Assembly: GCA_048940925.1 (NCBI GenBank)
Contig: JBHLOC010000021.1
Location: 44,802 to 85,268 of the forward strand
DNA from: Promethearchaeota archaeon
GTDB lineage: Archaea; Asgardarchaeota; Lokiarchaeia; Sigyniarchaeales; SOKP01
DNA length: 40,467 nucleotides
Direction: 5' to 3'
Position numbers and translations under genes: made by a program. Positions 4,965-38,944 of this stretch are shown one piece after another; within the stretch, counting starts at the first letter, position 1, and each line of letters begins with the position of its first letter. Below the pieces are notes generated by a model. That model worked only from the letters and a program-made list of their open reading frames with translations, was not told the origin of the DNA and ran no database searches.

Positions 4965-5678
4965 CTAGGTTTTAAGCCCAAGATACATCCAGACAGCAAA
5001 AGTTGCCATAACAATTCTTGTGAGCCCAATAGTCCAAGGTGTTTCAAGTATTGAATCTAATGCTCCACAAACAACGAAAATGATAAAACCAATTGATAAA
5101 TACGTAAACTTTCTCCGTAATAAACCAGTAGATTGTTTTGCTTTTATTGCAAATCCTATTCCTAAGAAAATTAAAGAAGAAACTAAAAATACTGCAACCA
5201 AGATAAAAGTGGGATGTCCTTGATTAAAACTGGCATCTATTAAACCATTGGGTACCAACACTTCAATATAGTCAAATGAATCAACTGTCTGAAACCATAA
5301 GAAATATTCGAATACTATTCCTAAGACTAAAAAAATCCCTACGAGTACCCATTTGTATTTAGGGATTAGAAGTTCTCCACCAAGATACATTGCAAAAAAA
5401 AGCGCAGGTGCAACCCATGTATAACTTAAAAGTACATAAACTGGAACTGGACCTTCAGCTGGCCCTAAATTATGATCTGTAATTAATTTGACAAAAAAAT
5501 CAATAGTTGGACCAAGCCATAAGAAACCTACGAAAAAAATTTGTATACCTGCTATAGATAATAGTTTAGCTTTCAATTTTATTGATTTATAAAGAGATAA
5601 TAAACCAAAAACTGCTGAAGATAAAATAATAAGTGATGCTGTTAAGCCATCCAACCAACCTTCAAAAGCGATTACCAT
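4965..5678 (-). CDS. Stand-alone 7-TM integral membrane protein, unknown function
   Basis: Seven hydrophobic segments counted by eye; no soluble domain. Confidence 0.8.
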   Translation of the reverse strand: MVIAFEGWLDGLTASLIILSSAVFGLLSLYKSIKLKAKLLSIAGIQIFFVGFLWLGPTIDFFVKLITDHNLGPAEGPVPVYVLLSYTWVAPALFFAMYLGGELLIPKYKWVLVGIFLVLGIVFEYFLWFQTVDSFDYIEVLVPNGLIDASFNQGHPTFILVAVFLVSSLIFLGIGFAIKAKQSTGLLRRKFTYLSIGFIIFVVCGALDSILETPWTIGLTRIVMATFAVWMYLGLKT

Positions 5679-5841
5679 TCTTAATTCCTCACAAATTATC
5701 TAAAAATTTTATTGTAAATTGAAATTATATATTTATTTAATTTGATTTTATTTATAATTATATTTTTTGTATTGACAAAATATATTAAAGTTTGTAAGCT
5801 GTAATTCTAATTGTTTTTTAATTATTAATATTTAAGGATCT

Positions 5842-6399
5842 CTAAATTAATTGAAATCTTCTATAAAAAAATGTGGATACTTTTTGATTTTTCTTATCGT
5901 CTTCCAACTTGAATTTAAGTTCTAAATGTTGGTTAAGACTTTTCAATGGATACATATGAGAGATAATAATAGCTCCACCTTTTGCTGTGCTGATTACATG
6001 ATTAAGATATTTTTCCATTGTGGGTAAAGAATATATATAAATAAAATCATAATTCTTTAAATTATGGGTATAGAAATTTCCCCTTATGAATTTTACTTTA
6101 CTGAATACTTTTTTTTTATAAATTTTACCTTCTTTTAATAATCGAATAGACTTTTTAGCTTCATTTATAAGGATTGGATCGATTTCAATTCCGATTGATC
6201 TTATTCCATAATTTACTGCAGAATAAATAATGACTTGACCATTTCCCGAACCTAAATCAATTAATATTTGCTTAGAATTTTTATGCAGATCAAATTTTTT
6301 CGCAAGGGTTCCAAATATCTTTTTTAGAAAGACTTGTTTAGTTTCTTGGAATGGTAGATCTAATTGAGAATAAAATTTCTTTAATTTCTTTTCGCACAT
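5842..6399 (-). CDS. Class I SAM-dependent methyltransferase, resembling aKMT/FAM173-type protein-lysine methyltransferases
   Basis: IDLGSGNGQV (motif I), GIEID (post-I), YDFIYIYSLP; N-terminal LPFQET. Confidence 0.8.
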   Translation of the reverse strand: MCEKKLKKFYSQLDLPFQETKQVFLKKIFGTLAKKFDLHKNSKQILIDLGSGNGQVIIYSAVNYGIRSIGIEIDPILINEAKKSIRLLKEGKIYKKKVFSKVKFIRGNFYTHNLKNYDFIYIYSLPTMEKYLNHVISTAKGGAIIISHMYPLKSLNQHLELKFKLEDDKKNQKVSTFFYRRFQLI

Positions 6400-6480
6400 T
6401 TTAATGTTTCAATCAGTTCAGAATTTTATTCTTTTCATAATCATGAATTATTTATGCCTAATTAAATCTTATGAAATAAT

Positions 6481-8310
6481 TTAGAAAGTAGCTTCCGTTT
6501 GTTTTGCCTTAATTTCTTCAATAAATTCATAAGATTGGTGACGAAAGTATGTATTATATAATCTTGCATAATATCCATTTTTTTGAATCAAATTCTCATG
6601 ATTACCTTCCTCAACAATCTCCCCATGATCAAGTACAATTATACGATCGACGTTTCTTACGGTGGTAAGCCTATGAGCAATAACAATTGTAGTTCGTCCT
6701 TGCATTACTTTCTCCATGGCTTCTTGAATCTGAACCTCTGTAAACGGATCTACTGATGCTGTTGCTTCGTCTAATATTAAGATTGATGGATTTTGTAATA
6801 AAACTCTTGCAAATACTATCAATTGTCGTTGTCCCATTGAGAGAACTTTTCCTCTTTCTAAAATGTATGTTTCCAGTCCCTTATCAAGATTTTTAATCCA
6901 TTCCATACCGCCAGACTGGTCTAGAGCCCAAATTACATCTTCTTTTGTGGCATCTGGTGAGCCATAGGTAATATTATTTTTGATTGAGTCAGCCCAGAGA
7001 AATGGCACCTGAGGTATAAATCCTACAGATCTCCTAAATTCTGTAAGTGATATATCTCGTATACTATGACCATCTATAAGAACATCTCCTGATTGAAATT
7101 CATATAAACGAAGTAAAATTTTTGTTAAAGTTGATTTACCTGCTCCCGTGTGGCCTACAATGGCAACAGTCTCTCCTGGGTGAATTTTCAAATTAAAACC
7201 TTTGAAAACAGGTTTACGAGGTACATATTCAAATTCTAAATTTTCAAATTCTATTTTTCCCTTTATTGAATCTAACACATAATCTCCTTGCTTAATATAA
7301 GATTGAGAGTCTTGAAGAGCAAAGATCCTTTCTGCTGCTGATAGTCCTTCTTGAAACTGAGGCCAAAAACTAGCAATTTGAAGTATAGGTGCGAATAAAA
7401 TTAACGAACTTTGAAGAAACAGATAAATATCTGACCCACTCAGCACCCCTTGTAGTATAAAATTACCTCCAAAAAATATAAGTAAAGCATAGAGAATAGC
7501 GATGAAAATATCTAAGCTCGGAAAGAGAATAGATAAATATAAAGCTCTACTCATGTTTACTTGAAAGGATTGATCATTAATCGCTTGAAAATTGTCAAAT
7601 TGGCTTTCTTCTTGGCGAAAACTTTTTATTATTTGAATTCCTGCCATAGATTCCTGTATAAAGGCATTTACTTGCGCTAAGGAACGCTGACCATACATTG
7701 ACTTTTTTCTTGCAACTTTACGAAAAGAGAGTGTAAATGCAAAAACAATAGGTATCATTAACATGAATACTCCTGTTAACAATGGACTTATAAAGATCAT
7801 TGGAATAAGTACGATAATTAACATTATAAATGAAGAAATTAATTCTGTAAACATGGTAATTGAACTACCGAATTTTTGTCCATCAGAATTGATCCTACTT
7901 ACTATTCTGCCTGTTGGATATTTATCAAAGAAAGATAAATCTTGCTCAAGAACTCTTAAATTAGTTTGTCTACGTAAATTATAGCAGACACTATATACCA
8001 TTCGATTGCTTGTACGCCTATTTACATAGTTAAAAACATATCCTAATGAATTCAAGATTAAAGTAGTTATAATAAAATAAATTAAAATAAAGAGATCTGA
8101 TTTTAATTCTAGTTGTTTAATAATTAGACTCATTAGATAAGGAGTTAATCCATAAGTAACTGATGAAAGACATATAAAAGTAATTACAATTGTCATAGAA
8201 CGTCTATAGGGTTTAAACAATTTTATAACTCTATTAAATAATTCTCTATCTGAATAAATTCTATCATAACCCTCTTCATCTAATCCAAAATAACCTATTC
8301 TTCGAAACAT
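6481..8310 (-). CDS. ABC exporter half-transporter (TMD+NBD), subunit B
   Basis: Walker A GHTGAGKS, degenerate signature LSMGQRQ, Walker B ILILDEAT, H-loop IAHRL. Confidence 0.95.
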   Translation of the reverse strand: MFRRIGYFGLDEEGYDRIYSDRELFNRVIKLFKPYRRSMTIVITFICLSSVTYGLTPYLMSLIIKQLELKSDLFILIYFIITTLILNSLGYVFNYVNRRTSNRMVYSVCYNLRRQTNLRVLEQDLSFFDKYPTGRIVSRINSDGQKFGSSITMFTELISSFIMLIIVLIPMIFISPLLTGVFMLMIPIVFAFTLSFRKVARKKSMYGQRSLAQVNAFIQESMAGIQIIKSFRQEESQFDNFQAINDQSFQVNMSRALYLSILFPSLDIFIAILYALLIFFGGNFILQGVLSGSDIYLFLQSSLILFAPILQIASFWPQFQEGLSAAERIFALQDSQSYIKQGDYVLDSIKGKIEFENLEFEYVPRKPVFKGFNLKIHPGETVAIVGHTGAGKSTLTKILLRLYEFQSGDVLIDGHSIRDISLTEFRRSVGFIPQVPFLWADSIKNNITYGSPDATKEDVIWALDQSGGMEWIKNLDKGLETYILERGKVLSMGQRQLIVFARVLLQNPSILILDEATASVDPFTEVQIQEAMEKVMQGRTTIVIAHRLTTVRNVDRIIVLDHGEIVEEGNHENLIQKNGYYARLYNTYFRHQSYEFIEEIKAKQTEATF

Positions 8311-19858: not shown

Positions 19859-20584
19859 TTATGAATATGTTTTTCTTTTATACTTAAATATATCTTCAAT
19901 AGTAATACCATAGGATAATAACTCTCTTTCTATAATCGGTTTCTTTAATGTCCATTTGAATGGTTTTACAATTTCCCGTAAAAATTTATGAACATTATCT
20001 TTAGCTTCAGTTCTAGTGGAATAACCAATGTAAGGAGTGCCATATTTGGATCTACCCTCATATTTATAAATTTTAGATGTAAAAATTCCTAAACTACTAC
20101 TCAATTTTTTAAAATCTTTTACAAGAATCTTTGAACCATTAGTAAAATTTAACCCAAGTGAGATATAATTTTTCTTTTTATATCTACTCAGAAAAATTGA
20201 TCCATCTGTATCAAATAGACCTTTAATACAGGCTGAAATAATACTATTTTTTGAACAATTTTTTATCCATTCAGGTACACCAACCTGATTTTTTATTTTA
20301 TTTCCTGGAACTACTCCAACATCAACTAATGATTCTACTATTTTTTTTTGAAATATGCGAAGAACAGCGCAATTATCTTTTCTCTTTGTTTGTAACGAAG
20401 GTACAATATTGAATATTGATTCGATTAAACTCTTCACATAAAATAAATACTCTTTTTCATCCATATAATTAAACGCAATTTCACATGAATAATGAGATGA
20501 ATCATAATCCAATTGTATTGAACCATCACCTAAGATAATTCCTATTAATTCAGCGATTTTTTTATTTTTTGTAAGCTTCATCAC
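19859..20584 (-). CDS. Free-standing two-motif LAGLIDADG endonuclease-like protein
   Basis: AELIGIILGDGSI and CIKGLFDTDGSI, with both motif-terminal Asp residues kept; GNK...VPEWI and LNFTNGS..L patterns; no intein termini. Confidence 0.9.
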   Translation of the reverse strand: MMKLTKNKKIAELIGIILGDGSIQLDYDSSHYSCEIAFNYMDEKEYLFYVKSLIESIFNIVPSLQTKRKDNCAVLRIFQKKIVESLVDVGVVPGNKIKNQVGVPEWIKNCSKNSIISACIKGLFDTDGSIFLSRYKKKNYISLGLNFTNGSKILVKDFKKLSSSLGIFTSKIYKYEGRSKYGTPYIGYSTRTEAKDNVHKFLREIVKPFKWTLKKPIIERELLSYGITIEDIFKYKRKTYS

Positions 20585-20658
20585 AAATTATTAAAATCAA
20601 TTTCACTTTTTAATATAAAGACACTTAATGATTTAGGATTTTTGAATATTCAATATTG

Positions 20659-20693
20659 CAATAAAAAAAATGAGATTAACAATAAAAAAATGA
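20659..20693 (-). terminator. Tandem oligo-T tracts after tRNA-Arg, probable archaeal terminators
   Basis: Near-direct repeat caataaaaaaaatga (20659-20673) and caataaaaaaatga (20680-20693), giving T8 and T7 runs on the minus strand 50-85 nt 3' of the tRNA. Confidence 0.4.
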
Positions 20694-20742
20694 ATAATAA
20701 TTAATCATAAGATTTAGTTTCATTTACTCATTATTAATAAAG

Positions 20743-20817
20743 TGGTCCAGGAGGGATTTGAACCCCCGATTTCTGGCTCCGCAAGCCAGTGCCCTATCCA
20801 AACTAGACAACTGGACC
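20743..20817 (-). tRNA. tRNA-Arg(GCG), no intron, CCA not encoded
   Basis: Reverse complement folds as acceptor GGTCCAG/CTGGACC, anticodon arm CTGGC-TT GCG GA-GCCAG, T arm GGGGG-TTCAAAT-CCCTC. Confidence 0.97.
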
Positions 20818-34600: not shown

Positions 34601-34900
34601 TTAACTTATTGCTCCTAGAAAAGTTGCAAGAAGTACAATTATACCCCCTATTAAGCTCGCAAAAACTATTAAAAGTATTCCTAAAATCGCTAGAAAAACA
34701 GGTGTATAAGGTATTGGTTTAACACCTAATCCAATAGCTAAAATAGAAAATATTATTGCTAATACACCACCTATGAGGCCAAACCCATAAGGTAAATATT
34801 CTATTCCTATTATATGAACAATAGCTTCAATTAAAGCAATAATACCTCCAATTATAGCCATAATACGCATTGTTTTATCTGTTTCCTGCACTTCACCCAT
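34601..34900 (-). CDS. Small Gly-rich membrane protein, 3-4 TM
   Basis: 99-aa hydrophobic ORF with an internal GG-I/V-I/L repeat; GTGAG upstream of the ATG. Confidence 0.8.
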   Translation of the reverse strand: MGEVQETDKTMRIMAIIGGIIALIEAIVHIIGIEYLPYGFGLIGGVLAIIFSILAIGLGVKPIPYTPVFLAILGILLIVFASLIGGIIVLLATFLGAIS

Positions 34901-34933: not shown

Positions 34934-34993
34934 TTAAAAAGAAGATCAACAATACTTAAAAACTTATAAAAATGAGTAGATGATTATTTTAAT
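34934..34993. repeat. Copy 1 of a 60-bp promoter-like direct repeat
   Basis: Ungapped 47/60 match (counted by hand) to 36562-36621; contains TTAAAAACTTATAA (BRE/TATA-like). Confidence 0.8.
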
Positions 34994-35015
34994 AACTGTT
35001 TAATATCATTAAATT

Positions 35016-36470
35016 ATGTCATTAAAGCAACTTCAATTATTAAATAAATCACTGAAATCAGCTAATTTATCTAGATTCAAAGAAATTTTCAATCTATACA
35101 CAGAAAATAGAAGCTTACATTTGTCAGAATCACTAAATTATAAAAAATTTAGAGATCAAATTGAAAAATCTTATTATTTTGCTCTCTCTAAATTCCTCGC
35201 TTTATTTAGATTTGATGATTTTAGTGAACTTTTTAATTACTCTGATAAATTAGGGATTTTCATAGATGTTAAAAAAATCCCAAACCGATTTCAAATTATC
35301 TGTGACCTACATTTAGATGGCATTCAAAGAGGATTAATAGGTAGGATTTTTGATATTATTAGGTTTTTTAATCAATATAATTTATTTGAAAGAGATTTTA
35401 CTGAAGCAGAACTAGAAGAACTCGAAGAAATAAAAAAAGATAAACTGCTTATAGAGAATTTAAAAGATTTATTTGGCAAGCTTTCGAATTCATTAATTTT
35501 TTATGCATGTAAAATTATGCCTTATGATCTTTATAAAATATATGTGGAACGTATTAATTATTATTCTTTAAACAGTCTTGAAAGAACTGAATTAGGAGAT
35601 ACATCCAATCTAAATTTTTTAAAACGATGGACTGATCGTTATTCTATTTATGGTTTAAGTGTAGAAAACTTAGGGGATTCAATAAGTTTTGCTAAATACT
35701 GTAAAAAACAGCATGAATTAAATAAAAACAGAGCAACCTTTAATAATGTACAATTACTTAAAATTAAGTATCGTAACAGAATACACCTGGTCTCAATTAA
35801 TAATCTGTTAAAAAATTATGACAAGATAATTGAGAATAAAGCAAATTATAATTTTTATAGTCTATCAATGGTTCTATTAGGAGGATTAGGTCCCCAAGGG
35901 CATGGTTTTACTTATTCGACACCCCGAGGAGAATTGATAGAAATATGTAGTGATATAAAAGAGAATGAGGCAATAATCATAAAATACAAGCAATTTTTAA
36001 AAGAACGTTTTCTCTCGAAAATGAATAAAGAATTATATAAAAAGGGTATTGATGAGATTACAGTACGAAAATTGGAAGAATACCTCTCAGATGTCATAAA
36101 TGATAAGCAAAAGATTAGTTTTTTTAACAAGGATGAAATTGTTAATCATATTTATGAATTTTTGAGCATATCAAATGATAGAATCTATAAAAATGATTCA
36201 GAACTGTTTAATTTAATAACAGAAATCTCAGATGTTATAAAAATAATCCTTAGACCGATACATATGATTGATCAATTTATATGTAGAATGAATTTAGTTG
36301 ATGAAGACGTACTCAAATCTGAAGAAATCGCAAAATTAACCAGTTTGGAAGGAAAATCCCATTTTGACGTTTTAAGAGAAAGATTTTTCTTTCAAAATGA
36401 AGTTTATTGGTTTTTTAAAGACTATTCTAATGAAATAAATGCACTTGAGAAAAAATTTCTATCACTTTAA
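35016..36470 (+). CDS. Uncharacterised protein, tandem paralog A
   Basis: 484 aa, collinear with 36689..38215; GGLGPQGHGFTYSTPRGELIEICSD and AKLTSLEGKSHFDVLRER. Confidence 0.88.
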   Translation: MSLKQLQLLNKSLKSANLSRFKEIFNLYTENRSLHLSESLNYKKFRDQIEKSYYFALSKFLALFRFDDFSELFNYSDKLGIFIDVKKIPNRFQIICDLHLDGIQRGLIGRIFDIIRFFNQYNLFERDFTEAELEELEEIKKDKLLIENLKDLFGKLSNSLIFYACKIMPYDLYKIYVERINYYSLNSLERTELGDTSNLNFLKRWTDRYSIYGLSVENLGDSISFAKYCKKQHELNKNRATFNNVQLLKIKYRNRIHLVSINNLLKNYDKIIENKANYNFYSLSMVLLGGLGPQGHGFTYSTPRGELIEICSDIKENEAIIIKYKQFLKERFLSKMNKELYKKGIDEITVRKLEEYLSDVINDKQKISFFNKDEIVNHIYEFLSISNDRIYKNDSELFNLITEISDVIKIILRPIHMIDQFICRMNLVDEDVLKSEEIAKLTSLEGKSHFDVLRERFFFQNEVYWFFKDYSNEINALEKKFLSL

Positions 36471-36490
36471 TCTTTAAAGAGTAAATTTAT

Positions 36491-36557
36491 ATCGAAGAGG
36501 GGTGATTGAACCCCCAACCAATAATTTATCGCTAAGACATTAAGCATCCTCTTTGAT
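36491..36557 (-). ncRNA. tRNA-Pro-derived tRNA-like element (pseudo-tRNA or ncRNA)
   Basis: Minus strand TGGTTGGGGGTTCAATCACCCCTCTTCG resembles the tRNA-Pro 3' end TGGTCGGGGGTTCAATTCCCCCCTCTCCC. Bounded by the inverted repeat atcgaagagg (36491-36500) / cctctttgat (36548-36557). No anticodon arm. Confidence 0.65.
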
Positions 36558-36561
36558 CTTC

Positions 36562-36621
36562 TTAAAAAGTAGATCAGTTCTGTTTAAAAACTTATAAGAA
36601 TTAAAAGATATTTATTTTAAT
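36562..36621. repeat. Copy 2 of the 60-bp promoter-like direct repeat
   Basis: 47/60 identity with 34934-34993; begins 5 nt beyond the tRNA-like element. Confidence 0.8.
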
Positions 36622-36688
36622 CAAATTAAATAATGATCATCAACACTACTAGTTTAAATATTTCAATAATTCCCCATTACTTATAACC

Positions 36689-38215
36689 ATGCTATCATCC
36701 CAATTTCAAACAATTATTAAGACCTTAAAATCAGGAGATATCCCTAAATTTATAAGAATAATCGACCAATTTACAGAACATGAACCGAACAACCTTACAA
36801 ATTCGAAGTATTATAATAAATTTAGAGCAGATCTCGAAAAAGCTTACTATGAAGCGCTATCAAAACGTCTTAAATCGATGAAAAATGATTTTGTCAAGGG
36901 GAAAAAGGATGTTTCTCAACTTCTTAATTATTCTGATAGATTAGGAATTTTTATTGATGTATCTAATGTTGATGTTGAGGGAATCATCAGTGAATTACAT
37001 ATAGATGGTCTTAATAAGGGAATCAGAAGTAGAATTATTGAACTTGTTAGGTTTTTTAATAAATACAATTTATTTGAGAGAAATTTTACTGTAGAGGAAT
37101 TAAAAATAGTTCAAGAAATAAAAAAGAATGATAGACTACTTGCCGTTAACTTAAAAGATTTATTTGGGACAGTTTCGGATTCATTGATTTTTTATATCTG
37201 TAAAGTAATGTCCTATGATTATGTGAAATGGATTAAGGATAGGTTAAAAAATCCTCGTGGTTATGGGTATTTAATGAGACCAAACTCTTTAAGAAATTGG
37301 ACTGATGGATATGTAATCTATGATTTAGTTGTTCGAAATTTAGGTAGTGTAGAAGAATTTATAGAAAAGGTTGAAGCTAAACAAAAGTTAGACAGTTTAA
37401 ATGGGGGCATGATACTATTAGAATTTAATCCACGCTTTATTTATAATACTATTGAAAATCGTATTATGCGTATATTGCGCGAAAAACATATTGTATATCC
37501 AAAAAATATAATACAAAATAAGGAAAAAATCTTAGATAAAGATAATTATAATTTCTATAGTCTTTCAATGGTAATTTTTGGGGGATTAGGACCAGAGGGT
37601 TACGGATTTACCTATTCTACTCCTAGAGGTGAAGTGATCGAAATATGTTCTGATCAAAAAGAAACTGAAGCTATCATTATAAAATTCAAGCAGTATTTGA
37701 TGAGAAGGTTTTTAGATAAACTTAAAAAAGAAATGGCTAATTTAGGCATAAACCTTAACATTAGAGAAAAAGTAATCAAGTATTTATCAGATGTTATTAA
37801 TCCTAAAGATATTGTTAGTTATTATAATAAAAATTCGATTGTAAGAAAAATAAAAAATTTCTTGCTTCGAATAGATGAATTTCAGCGTGTGGAACAATCA
37901 AAATTAGAAGCAATCATAGATAAAGTTTCATTTGCTGTTTCTGTAATTCTCAAGAAGATAAAACTTAAAGATCAATTCATTACACGGATGGAATTAGTAG
38001 CTAATGGAAAATTAAAATCTGAAGATGTGGCAAAACTCACAAGTTTAAGAGGAAAATCCCATTATGACGTCTTACGGGAAAGAATGTTTCTCCAGAACAA
38101 ACCTAAATGGTTTTTTAAAAACTATCCAAAACAAATAAATGAACTTGAAAGAGAATATCAGAAGAAATTGAGAGAGTTCAATGCAAGAGAAAGAGGAGTA
38201 ACTTTTGACTACTGA
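36689..38215 (+). CDS. Uncharacterised protein, tandem paralog B
   Basis: 508 aa; GGLGPEGYGFTYSTPRGEVIEICSD and AKLTSLRGKSHYDVLRER; convergent with tRNA-Pro. Confidence 0.88.
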   Translation: MLSSQFQTIIKTLKSGDIPKFIRIIDQFTEHEPNNLTNSKYYNKFRADLEKAYYEALSKRLKSMKNDFVKGKKDVSQLLNYSDRLGIFIDVSNVDVEGIISELHIDGLNKGIRSRIIELVRFFNKYNLFERNFTVEELKIVQEIKKNDRLLAVNLKDLFGTVSDSLIFYICKVMSYDYVKWIKDRLKNPRGYGYLMRPNSLRNWTDGYVIYDLVVRNLGSVEEFIEKVEAKQKLDSLNGGMILLEFNPRFIYNTIENRIMRILREKHIVYPKNIIQNKEKILDKDNYNFYSLSMVIFGGLGPEGYGFTYSTPRGEVIEICSDQKETEAIIIKFKQYLMRRFLDKLKKEMANLGINLNIREKVIKYLSDVINPKDIVSYYNKNSIVRKIKNFLLRIDEFQRVEQSKLEAIIDKVSFAVSVILKKIKLKDQFITRMELVANGKLKSEDVAKLTSLRGKSHYDVLRERMFLQNKPKWFFKNYPKQINELEREYQKKLREFNARERGVTFDY

Positions 38216-38333
38216 TAAATAGATGGTTCTTCTTCCAAAATGAAATTAACTGATTTTCTAAGAATTATACTAAAGAGATAAGAAAGTTTGAGGATTAGTT
38301 TTCAATTTTTTAAAAATATAATAAATTGATGTA

Positions 38334-38437
38334 TGGGAGAGGGGGGAATTGAACCCCCGACCACTCGGCCCCCAGCCGATTCTATTTGGTGAGATAAATT
38401 CTCACCAATGTATCATACCAAGCTAGACCACCCTCCC
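38334..38437 (-). tRNA. tRNA-Pro(GGG) with a 30-nt intron (38380-38409) at position 27/28
   Basis: Acceptor GGGAGGG/CTCTCCC, T arm GGGGG-TTCAATT-CCCCC. Removing 38380-38409 restores the anticodon arm CTCGG-CT GGG GG-CCGAG and gives 74 nt. Confidence 0.93.
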
Positions 38438-38647: not shown

Positions 38648-38944
38648 ATGCGTTCTAGAAAACCATTCATTATTTTTTGGCCTCAATATTTCGATGCAAA
38701 AAGAAGTCGAAGTAGAGGTAGGCGTGTACCTAAAAAATTTGCGATTGATAAAATTACACTTAATGATATCTTTAAAGCGGCTAATAATTTAGGTTATAAT
38801 GCTCAGATTGAAAAAGGATATAGATATTCTAGAACGTGGTGGGGAGATCCAGGAAGGGTTTTGATAGACACGAAGGGAAAGCAAAAGTCAAAAGTTTTAT
38901 TTGAAGTTGCTAAAGAAATTAGAAAAATTCAATCAAAAACTTAG
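38648..38944 (+). CDS. srp19: Signal recognition particle 19 kDa protein
   Basis: IFWPQYFDAKRSRSRGRRVPK, YSRTWW..PGRV, KSKVLFEVA. Confidence 0.95.
   Translation: MRSRKPFIIFWPQYFDAKRSRSRGRRVPKKFAIDKITLNDIFKAANNLGYNAQIEKGYRYSRTWWGDPGRVLIDTKGKQKSKVLFEVAKEIRKIQSKT

Follow-up and report, generated by a model that had tools for sequence, protein, structure and literature searches.

Known systems and the locus described here

The closest precedent for the locus described here is the transfer RNA (tRNA) gene for threonine of Caldiarchaeum subterraneum, where a fragment of one intron allele and another allele stand 1.8 kb apart, with an insert between them that encodes a recombinase (Sugahara et al. 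2012, PLoS One 7:e32504, PMC3293823). In Asgard archaea, tRNA-linked integration is known from Heimdallarchaeum, in which the element HeimM2 – with a homing-endonuclease homologue – is found between the 16S rRNA and tRNA-Arg genes (Wu et al. 2022, PMC8813620), and non-canonical tRNA introns are abundant in other Asgard classes (PMC11291895). Here we describe a tRNA-Pro(GGG) locus of a Promethearchaeota archaeon (Lokiarchaeia), contained in a stretch of 40,467 nucleotides (nt) from contig JBHLOC010000021.1 of assembly GCA_048940925.1 (positions 44,802 to 85,268, forward strand), which is referred to as the window and whose own numbering is used throughout.

The interval from memb, a small membrane-protein gene, to the 3′ end of tRNA-Pro(GGG) is probably a variable array of self-promoted gene cassettes, located at a recombination hot spot within one Lokiarchaeal genus. 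Each cassette consists of a promoter-like block of about 60 nt and one member of a genus-restricted protein family of about 500 residues. From comparison of related genomes, the cassettes appear to accrete, to be shuffled and to disappear at tRNA-Pro without a local integrase.

As in Caldiarchaeum, a tRNA-allele fragment is situated 1–2 kb from an intact allele with different introns, with inserted DNA between them, and alleles with different numbers of introns coexist in related genomes. The 1.8-kb insert of Caldiarchaeum, however, occurs repeatedly in the genome and codes for a DNA recombinase, whereas the insert here comprises a promoter and a paralogue of a host family, lacks a recombinase and is unique in its genome. 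Furthermore, the fragment in Caldiarchaeum is the 5′ part of the tRNA, while here it is always the 3′ part.

Layout of the locus

The source genome of the window, a bin of 4.8 Mb in 90 contigs with 8.4% estimated contamination, is called G000; other G numbers denote relatives. The features of the locus are as follows.

34601..34900, minus strand: memb, small membrane-protein gene, 99 aa (open reading frame (ORF) list; weak DUF6223 match)
34934..34993, plus strand: block1, putative archaeal promoter of ORF A (47/60 identity to block2)
35016..36470, plus strand: ORF A, A-type member of the ~500-aa family, 484 aa (ORF list)
36492..36557, minus strand: displaced tRNA-Pro 3′ fragment (the remnant), decaying (alignment to the tRNA-Pro of G018)
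36555..36575, no strand: imperfect palindrome GATCTTCTT-AAA-AAGTAGATC at the junction of fragment and block2 (sequence reading)
36562..36621, plus strand: block2, putative promoter of ORF B (47/60 identity to block1)
36689..38215, plus strand: ORF B, B-type family member, 508 aa (ORF list)
38227..38313, plus strand: pseudogene tail of a third family copy, X/A-like C-terminus (nt identity and translation)
38334..38437, minus strand: tRNA-Pro(GGG), intact, intron-bearing (Rfam, 35.8 bits)
38648..38944, plus strand: SRP19 gene, conserved right border, followed by hypA and rpS8e (Pfam)

A sequence-only reading of the window had proposed this layout of blocks, ORFs A and B, remnant and tRNA-Pro, and every one of these elements was located where it had been placed. 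The ORF B unit stands between direct repeats of the tRNA 3′ part, with fragment and intact tRNA in the same orientation and the tRNA gene itself intact. Pfam searches of the ORFs between 34.5 and 38.5 kb (memb, A, B and two short antisense frames) detected no recombinase domain.

Empty and occupied sites in related genomes

With the SRP19 gene as an anchor in 49 genomes, the tRNA-Pro locus was taken from 40 relatives; counts refer to these relatives plus G000 (41 loci), and the slot is the interval from memb to tRNA-Pro. The left border, memb, is conserved in nearly all of the 41 loci and is transcribed divergently from block1. The slot contains no family copy at 25 loci, one at 8, two at 4 and three at 1; a contig end cuts it at 2 further loci (with at least one and at least two copies) and makes it unreadable at 1. 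The comparison among relatives suggested by the sequence-only reading thus yields a copy number of 0–3. Besides family copies, the ORFs found between memb and SRP19 in relatives encode an AMP-ligase, an HNH protein, leucine-rich repeat (LRR) and beta-helix proteins and small proteins, and no integrase was found in or beside the cassette arrays inspected in these genomes.

In one clade, a 516-aa AMP-dependent synthetase gene has been inserted between tRNA-Pro and SRP19 (loci L038, L039, L041, L046, L047, L055, L058, L069 and L071); all nine members carry at least one cassette.

Both states of the insertion site can be seen. In G016 the site is empty, with memb followed by orf72 (72 aa), a spacer and the tRNA 3′ end. 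In G024 it is occupied, the order being memb, orf66, the same spacer, a remnant, GATCTTC, block2, a B-type ORF (B′) and the tRNA, and G044 is arranged alike; in both genomes the decayed fragment has an intron of the position-45 type, and there is no family copy to its left. Because the spacer of G016 continues in G024 up to the fragment, the fragment marks exactly the former tRNA end, behind which the cassette and a new tRNA 3′ part were inserted. In the tree that serves as the species tree – built from two short proteins, SRP19 and HypA – G024 and G044 are nested among zero-copy genomes.

Displaced tRNA sequences are not confined to these cases. A Hamming scan with the 29-nt tRNA 3′ end revealed extra fragments in the same orientation in G067, G024, G051 and G008, against controls of 0 on the opposite strand and 1 in five-fold shuffled sequence; more decayed fragments, in tRNA orientation, were read by eye in G069 and G044. 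In these six further genomes, tRNA-Pro remnants border inserts. The junction of the A-type copy with the fragment recurs in G067, as does that of fragment, block2 and B-type copy in G024 and G044.

A second kind of insert occupies the same site. An HNH endonuclease ORF of 280–370 aa (endonuclease VII-like; phrog_2255, E 4e-15) ends within a few nt of the tRNA-Pro 3′ end in four genomes: L037 (G067), oriented 5836-6678; L057 (G051), 5739-6575; L075 (G008), oriented 5831-6670; and L048 (G020), oriented 5612-6730. In G067, G051 and G008 this ORF is bracketed by a displaced tRNA 3′ fragment, and in G067 the order is A orthologue, tRNA fragment, HNH endonuclease gene, tRNA. Unlike the resident gene, the fragment of G051 contains an intron in the T-loop and part of one in the anticodon loop, and an LRR protein gene lies beside this remnant, just outside the HNH element. 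Among loci of distant HNH homologues, 4 of 20 have a tRNA within 1.5 kb. The HNH ORF family was not found in G000.

These comparisons indicate that the B cassette, with its own promoter, arrived by insertion into tRNA-Pro and displaced part of the tRNA, rather than by local duplication; they also indicate that the tRNA-Pro site has been used repeatedly and independently, and that deletions occur within the arrays.

The displaced fragment and the tRNA-Pro introns

The remnant corresponds to the 3′ 66 nt of a tRNA-Pro, and it matches a functional allele at 71–84%. Its parts are the acceptor 3′ strand, the T-arm, an intron of about 30 nt near position 45 and 2–3 nt of the anticodon stem. Aligned with the tRNA-Pro of G018 including its intron, the interval 36492-36557 scores 65, against 14 ± 2 for shuffled sequences, and the stretch 36499-36520 within it is 86% identical to the T-arm and acceptor of the intact tRNA. 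An Rfam search of 36471-36561 gave no match, even at E 10.

The resident tRNA-Pro(GGG) scores 35.8 bits in Rfam (gathering score 29) and has a 30-nt intron after position 27/28, at roughly 38380-38409, and none near position 45. ARAGORN missed the intact gene because of this insert; given the spliced form, with the 30 nt removed, it calls tRNA-Pro(GGG). The remnant shares an intron of about 30 nt, TTATCGCTAAGAyATTAAGC, with the G018-type allele. As its intron position differs from that of the resident tRNA, the remnant comes from another tRNA-Pro allele. The sequence-only reading had called it tRNA-Pro-like; it is more than a generic relic of that kind, and it is not derived from the resident tRNA but from an allele with its own intron.

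Decay has gone further in the orthologous fragments of G024 and G044, with the T-stem destroyed in G024, and the remnants of G000 and G024 are 50% identical, as neutral decay predicts. We considered whether the remnant could be functional, as a tRNA-like element that lacks an anticodon and has a compensated acceptor stem, and rejected this: the supposed 5′ strand aligns to the end of the donor intron plus the anticodon stem, and the acceptor-stem pairing is not kept in the orthologous fragments, which speaks against a functional element.

Across the genus (L036-L075), orthologous tRNA-Pro(GGG) genes have no intron in five genomes and otherwise one or two, distributed over at least six positions – two kinds near 26-28, and others near 45, in the T-stem, in the T-loop and in the anticodon loop. 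G019 and G049, whose neighbouring gene shows a synonymous divergence (dS) of 0.09, differ in tRNA-Pro intron type and in a compensatory anticodon-stem pair; this difference points to allele replacement with a breakpoint inside the tRNA.

Cassette types and their order

In a quick maximum-likelihood search, the slot copies form one clade apart from the core copies described below, and they fall into the deep types A, X and B and the long-branched type Y. Types A, X and B each span several species in this tree. ORF A groups with the G067 copy, and ORF B with copies from G002, G064, G048 and G013, with support of 100; the neighbouring copies A and B are thus not each other's closest relatives, as a tandem duplication would have them be. 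The tree indicates that A, B and X are old cassette types and not recent copies of one another.

Besides G000, five other genomes contain tandem arrays. The types are read left to right, toward the tRNA, as follows.

G000: A-B
G013: X-B
G048: B-X
G069: B-X-X′
G064 and G059: B-Y

Along their full length, ORFs A and B share 47% identity (E 1e-138), with a dS of 1.3 and synonymous sites saturated; as DNA, the two copies are about 65% identical. Each has closer orthologues elsewhere: that of ORF A in G067 is 83% identical, and those of ORF B, in ten genomes, are 60–76% identical, with 76% reached in G002, G064 and G048. Both ORFs appear to be under purifying selection, given ratios of nonsynonymous to synonymous divergence (dN/dS) of 0.14 for ORF A and 0.18–0.20 for ORF B against their orthologues; selection on both had been proposed from their intactness, and these ratios agree with it.

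Downstream of ORF B, the tail at 38227-38313 translates as FFFQNEIN*FSKNYTKEIRKFED*FSIF, with two in-frame stops, and its best protein matches are X-type C-termini; at the nucleotide level, 38227-38281 shares 76% identity with the 3′ end of ORF A. This stop-riddled family C-terminus implies that the array formerly contained a third copy. The supposition that the tail is an orthologue of the G018 gene was dropped, since the local identity of 71% is no higher than that to other X/A tails.

The G018 slot (L036, oriented 5058-5150) combines an A-type block, 95% identical to block1, with an X-type ORF preceded by the final ~30 nt of an X-type 5′ leader – a join that a deletion inside a former multi-copy array would produce. 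We had taken the G018 gene itself for an A/X chimera on the strength of a long BLAST alignment, but withdrew this, as sliding-window identity is X-type throughout.

Exchange of the B cassette between species

Compared with its counterpart in G002, ORF B is identical at 73 of 108 four-fold degenerate sites, against 53 of 127 in the flanking genes (Fisher p 8e-5), and the same excess of four-fold-site identity over the flanks is seen for G064 (p 3e-6) and G048 (p 2e-3). The B unit as a whole is 81–84% identical in nucleotides to G002 and G064, the flanks 72–73%, and this homology starts exactly at block2 and ends 5 nt past the stop codon. The silent sites and the nucleotide identities indicate that the B module was later exchanged between species. 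ORF A shows no such excess similarity to its G067 orthologue, its silent sites being somewhat more diverged than the flanks, which is consistent with vertical descent or with an older polymorphism.

Promoter-like blocks and the junction palindrome

Block1 and block2 are identical at 47 of 60 positions (78%), without gaps. When a 150-nt query containing block2 was compared with the whole 4.8-Mb genome, no match but block1 was significant (E 3.4e-7), the runner-up having an E value of 0.007 over 33 nt; the similarity is thus well above what composition would give. The match claimed in the sequence-only reading is thereby borne out as the only such pair in the genome, and beyond the locus neither block nor fragment occurs again in G000.

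Each cassette has its own conserved promoter-like block, consisting of a AAGAAGATC motif, an A-rich stretch resembling a transcription factor B recognition element (BRE), a TATA-like box (TTATAA) and a spacer to the presumed transcription start, with the TTATAA box about 25 nt before the conservation of the block ends. From this arrangement, we infer that both blocks are archaeal promoters. Block1 is 95% identical in G067 and G018 and 88–92% identical in five more genomes, always upstream of the first cassette, and block2 is 87% identical in G024.

The junction between fragment and block2 (GATCTTC) is the same in G024 and G044, and the palindrome is conserved in all three genomes. Its left arm is missing at first-copy blocks, so that the palindrome is formed at internal cassettes. 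Junction and block2 are 88% conserved between G000 and G024, against the 50% of the fragment, and the palindrome at 36555-36575 may be an operator or a recombination site.

The protein family

The family to which ORFs A and B belong has no match in Pfam, PADLOC or PHROGs, nor in PDB sequence profiles or the ESM Atlas. A profile search of 1.84 billion representative proteins yielded only 103 clusters (at 50% identity), all of this family, and no relatives were found on viral contigs. Of 24 genomes sampled within the genus, 23 have the family; the same query found it in none of 16 genomes that represent other families of the order. The family comprises at least 446 proteins, and the public names of homologous proteins point to Promethearchaeota/Lokiarchaeota. 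AlphaFold models are confident, with a predicted local distance difference test score (pLDDT) of 84 for the whole protein and 77.5 for a central beta domain, which carries the invariant motif GGLGPxGxGFTYSTPxGExIEICSD. Foldseek searches with family models gave nothing at E <= 0.001, and the best VIA-align scores were Z 8.2, for a helical segment only, and Z 3.1 for the central beta domain, neither of them pointing to a persuasive structural relative. Longer members of 720–770 aa (P0125, P0126, P0130-P0133, P0140, P0142, P0143, P0149 and P0151) have an extra N-terminal region of about 265–300 aa without a Pfam domain.

Most genomes hold a single core copy at a locus other than the tRNA-Pro slot, with no tRNA near it. 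This core paralogue (in G000, locus L005 on contig C63, 5338-6783, minus strand; L015, 1004-2889) is found about 90 nt downstream of a co-oriented Roadblock/LC7 gene (PF03259, 8e-15), which in G000 is partly masked by N. The pairing is kept in about 19 of 21 genomes, judged by upstream sequence. It is the sole lead to the function of the family and hints at a regulatory or GTPase-linked role. A 490-aa gene convergent with the core paralogue was considered and proved unrelated to the family.

A possible mechanism

The comparisons indicate that the incoming B cassette supplied a fresh tRNA 3′ part, which keeps the gene intact, and pushed aside as the remnant the former 3′ part, which stems from an allele whose intron is near position 45; the third copy would have been reduced to its tail by deletion. 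In the mechanism that we propose, the joining could proceed by Campbell-type or double-crossover recombination, with the conserved tRNA-Pro sequence as its anchor and DNA from related cells or from excised circles as the partner, and could be carried out by host homologous or short-homology recombination, possibly stimulated by breaks that the HNH endonuclease genes at the same site in other species would introduce. We put forward this enzymatic route only tentatively, at a little under even chances; a site-specific integrase acting in trans seems unlikely. The sequence-only reading had offered 'tRNA-anchored cassette accretion without a local integrase', in an arrangement like attL/attR, as one of two possibilities, and it gains support from the copy number of 0–3, from empty and occupied sites, from remnants in six further genomes and from the lateral signal of ORF B.

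Several points weigh against cassette accretion by recombination. The enzymatic step is itself an inference, with no excised circle, fixed-length attachment (att) core or recombinase demonstrated. Every genome of clade II has at least one cassette, and vertical birth-and-death could account for much of the variation in that clade. The lateral signal comes from divergence estimates (NG86) and four-fold-site counts, with four short flanking genes for comparison. The tail at 38227-38313 has 70–76% nucleotide identity to all X/A tails, so that no single donor can be assigned to it, remnant lengths range from 28 to about 80 nt, and every genome compared, G000 included, is a metagenome bin.

A bolder variant, which we think improbable, would make the locus a dedicated integrase-free exchange system, in which the recombination handle is the tRNA-Pro 3′ half that each incoming module brings along. 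Each insertion would then replace the resident tRNA 3′ half and so drive intron gain and loss across the genus, the junction GATCTTCTT-AAA-AAGnAGATC would be the site of an undiscovered enzyme, and the diversified proteins would be selected cargo, for instance with self/non-self or conflict functions.

Alternative explanations

The cassettes could instead be cargo of a classical integrative element, moved by a tyrosine or serine integrase that acts in trans or has since been lost and that finds its att core within the 3′ part of tRNA-Pro. Inserts bracketed by direct repeats of tRNA 3′ sequence, and the coexistence of empty and occupied sites, are what such an element would leave; tRNA-gene integration is known in Asgard archaea (PMC8813620), and the Caldiarchaeum recombinase element is likewise flanked by a fragment of one intron allele beside another allele (PMC3293823). 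No cassette array inspected has an integrase in or beside it, however, the family is not found on viral contigs, and the length of the repeat varies; decay or imprecise events fit this variation better than one classical integrase. We regard this explanation as unlikely.

Also unlikely is purely vertical birth-and-death, in which an ancestral multi-copy array has been thinned by differential deletion only, the fragment is an ancient partial-duplication relic and nothing has moved between genomes. Deletions are evident, both in the tail at 38227-38313 and in the G018 join of an A-type promoter with an X-type leader and ORF; no genome among the nine of one clade lacks a copy; and from an A-B-X ancestor, a single deletion or replacement would suffice for each of G000, G018 and G067. 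Against this, the orders X-B and B-X would require many extra copies under a fixed ancestral order, G024 and G044 stand inside a zero-copy clade with the flank of the empty site intact against the fragment, and the synonymous divergence of ORF B is below that of its flanks in comparison with three genomes of another clade.

The other possibility of the sequence-only reading, an old whole-unit tandem duplication, fares worse. A promoter, an ORF and a tRNA (or its 3′ part) would have been copied on the spot, after which A and B diverged and the inner tRNA decayed; a right end inside the tRNA would indeed yield exactly promoter, ORF and fragment followed by promoter, ORF and tRNA, and the two ORFs are co-oriented paralogues. 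Yet A and B, at 47% identity and a dS of 1.3, belong to deep types shared (with X) among species and have closer orthologues elsewhere (83% in G067 for A; 76% in G002, G064 and G048 for B), the fragment, at 71–84% to a functional allele, is too well kept for neutral DNA of the age of the A/B split, its intron is of a type absent from the resident tRNA, and the module of fragment, block2 and B also exists without a left paralogue, beside native flank. In situ duplication is thus very improbable.

A chimeric join of two strains' loci, which a 90-contig bin with 8.4% estimated contamination might invite, is barely credible, as three independent assemblies repeat its junctions (that of A and fragment in G067, that of fragment, block2 and B in G024 and G044), the copies, about 65% identical in DNA, are too unlike to mislead an assembler, and tandem arrays occur in five other genomes.

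Comparison with islands, homing elements and integrons

The array of self-promoted cassettes shares with tRNA-associated genomic islands and integrative elements – of the tyrosine-integrase type, including archaeal SSV/pNOB8-type elements and those of Asgard archaea (PMC8813620) – the insertion on the 3′ side, repeats of the 3′ part, empty and occupied sites and the concentration on one tRNA gene as a hot spot. Unlike them, it has no integrase in cis, each cargo consists of one gene together with its promoter, successive cassettes are paralogues of one another stacked in an array, and the repeat length is not constant. Of the marks of a classical island, repeats with an intact tRNA and empty and occupied sites are present, and an encoded integrase is not.

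The likeness to homing-endonuclease elements of the HeimM2 type consists in the HNH ORF at the tRNA-Pro 3′ end of G067, G051, G008 and G020, where G000 has ORF B. The G000 insert differs in lacking an endonuclease gene, and a role of the HNH proteins in moving family cassettes is only a possibility. Elsewhere in the window, a free-standing LAGLIDADG endonuclease ORF (PF14528, 3e-13) at 19859-20817 directly follows the 3′ end of tRNA-Arg(GCG) on the same strand; a tRNA-Arg fragment was looked for beyond this gene and was not found.

With integron arrays, the locus has in common that single-gene cassettes are ordered at one site and vary in number and order among relatives. In contrast to integrons, no IntI-type integrase and no attI or attC site was identified (attC-like hairpins were not searched for specifically), and the cassettes here are self-promoted, all belong to one protein family and have a tRNA gene as anchor.

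Significance

The locus provides a clean comparative example, in Asgard archaea, of gene gain, shuffling and loss at a tRNA in the absence of a resident integrase. It further draws attention to a protein family that is restricted to the genus and without a structural match, and whose extra members behave as exchangeable cargo. Twice, independently – in the module common to G000, G024 and G044 and in the element of G051 – the intron make-up of the displaced fragment differs from that of the gene that replaces it. The locus thereby links gene turnover to the puzzle of how non-canonical tRNA introns arise and turn over, and makes it possible to test, with existing metagenomes, the hypothesis that tRNA halves carried by mobile elements rewrite tRNA intron patterns.

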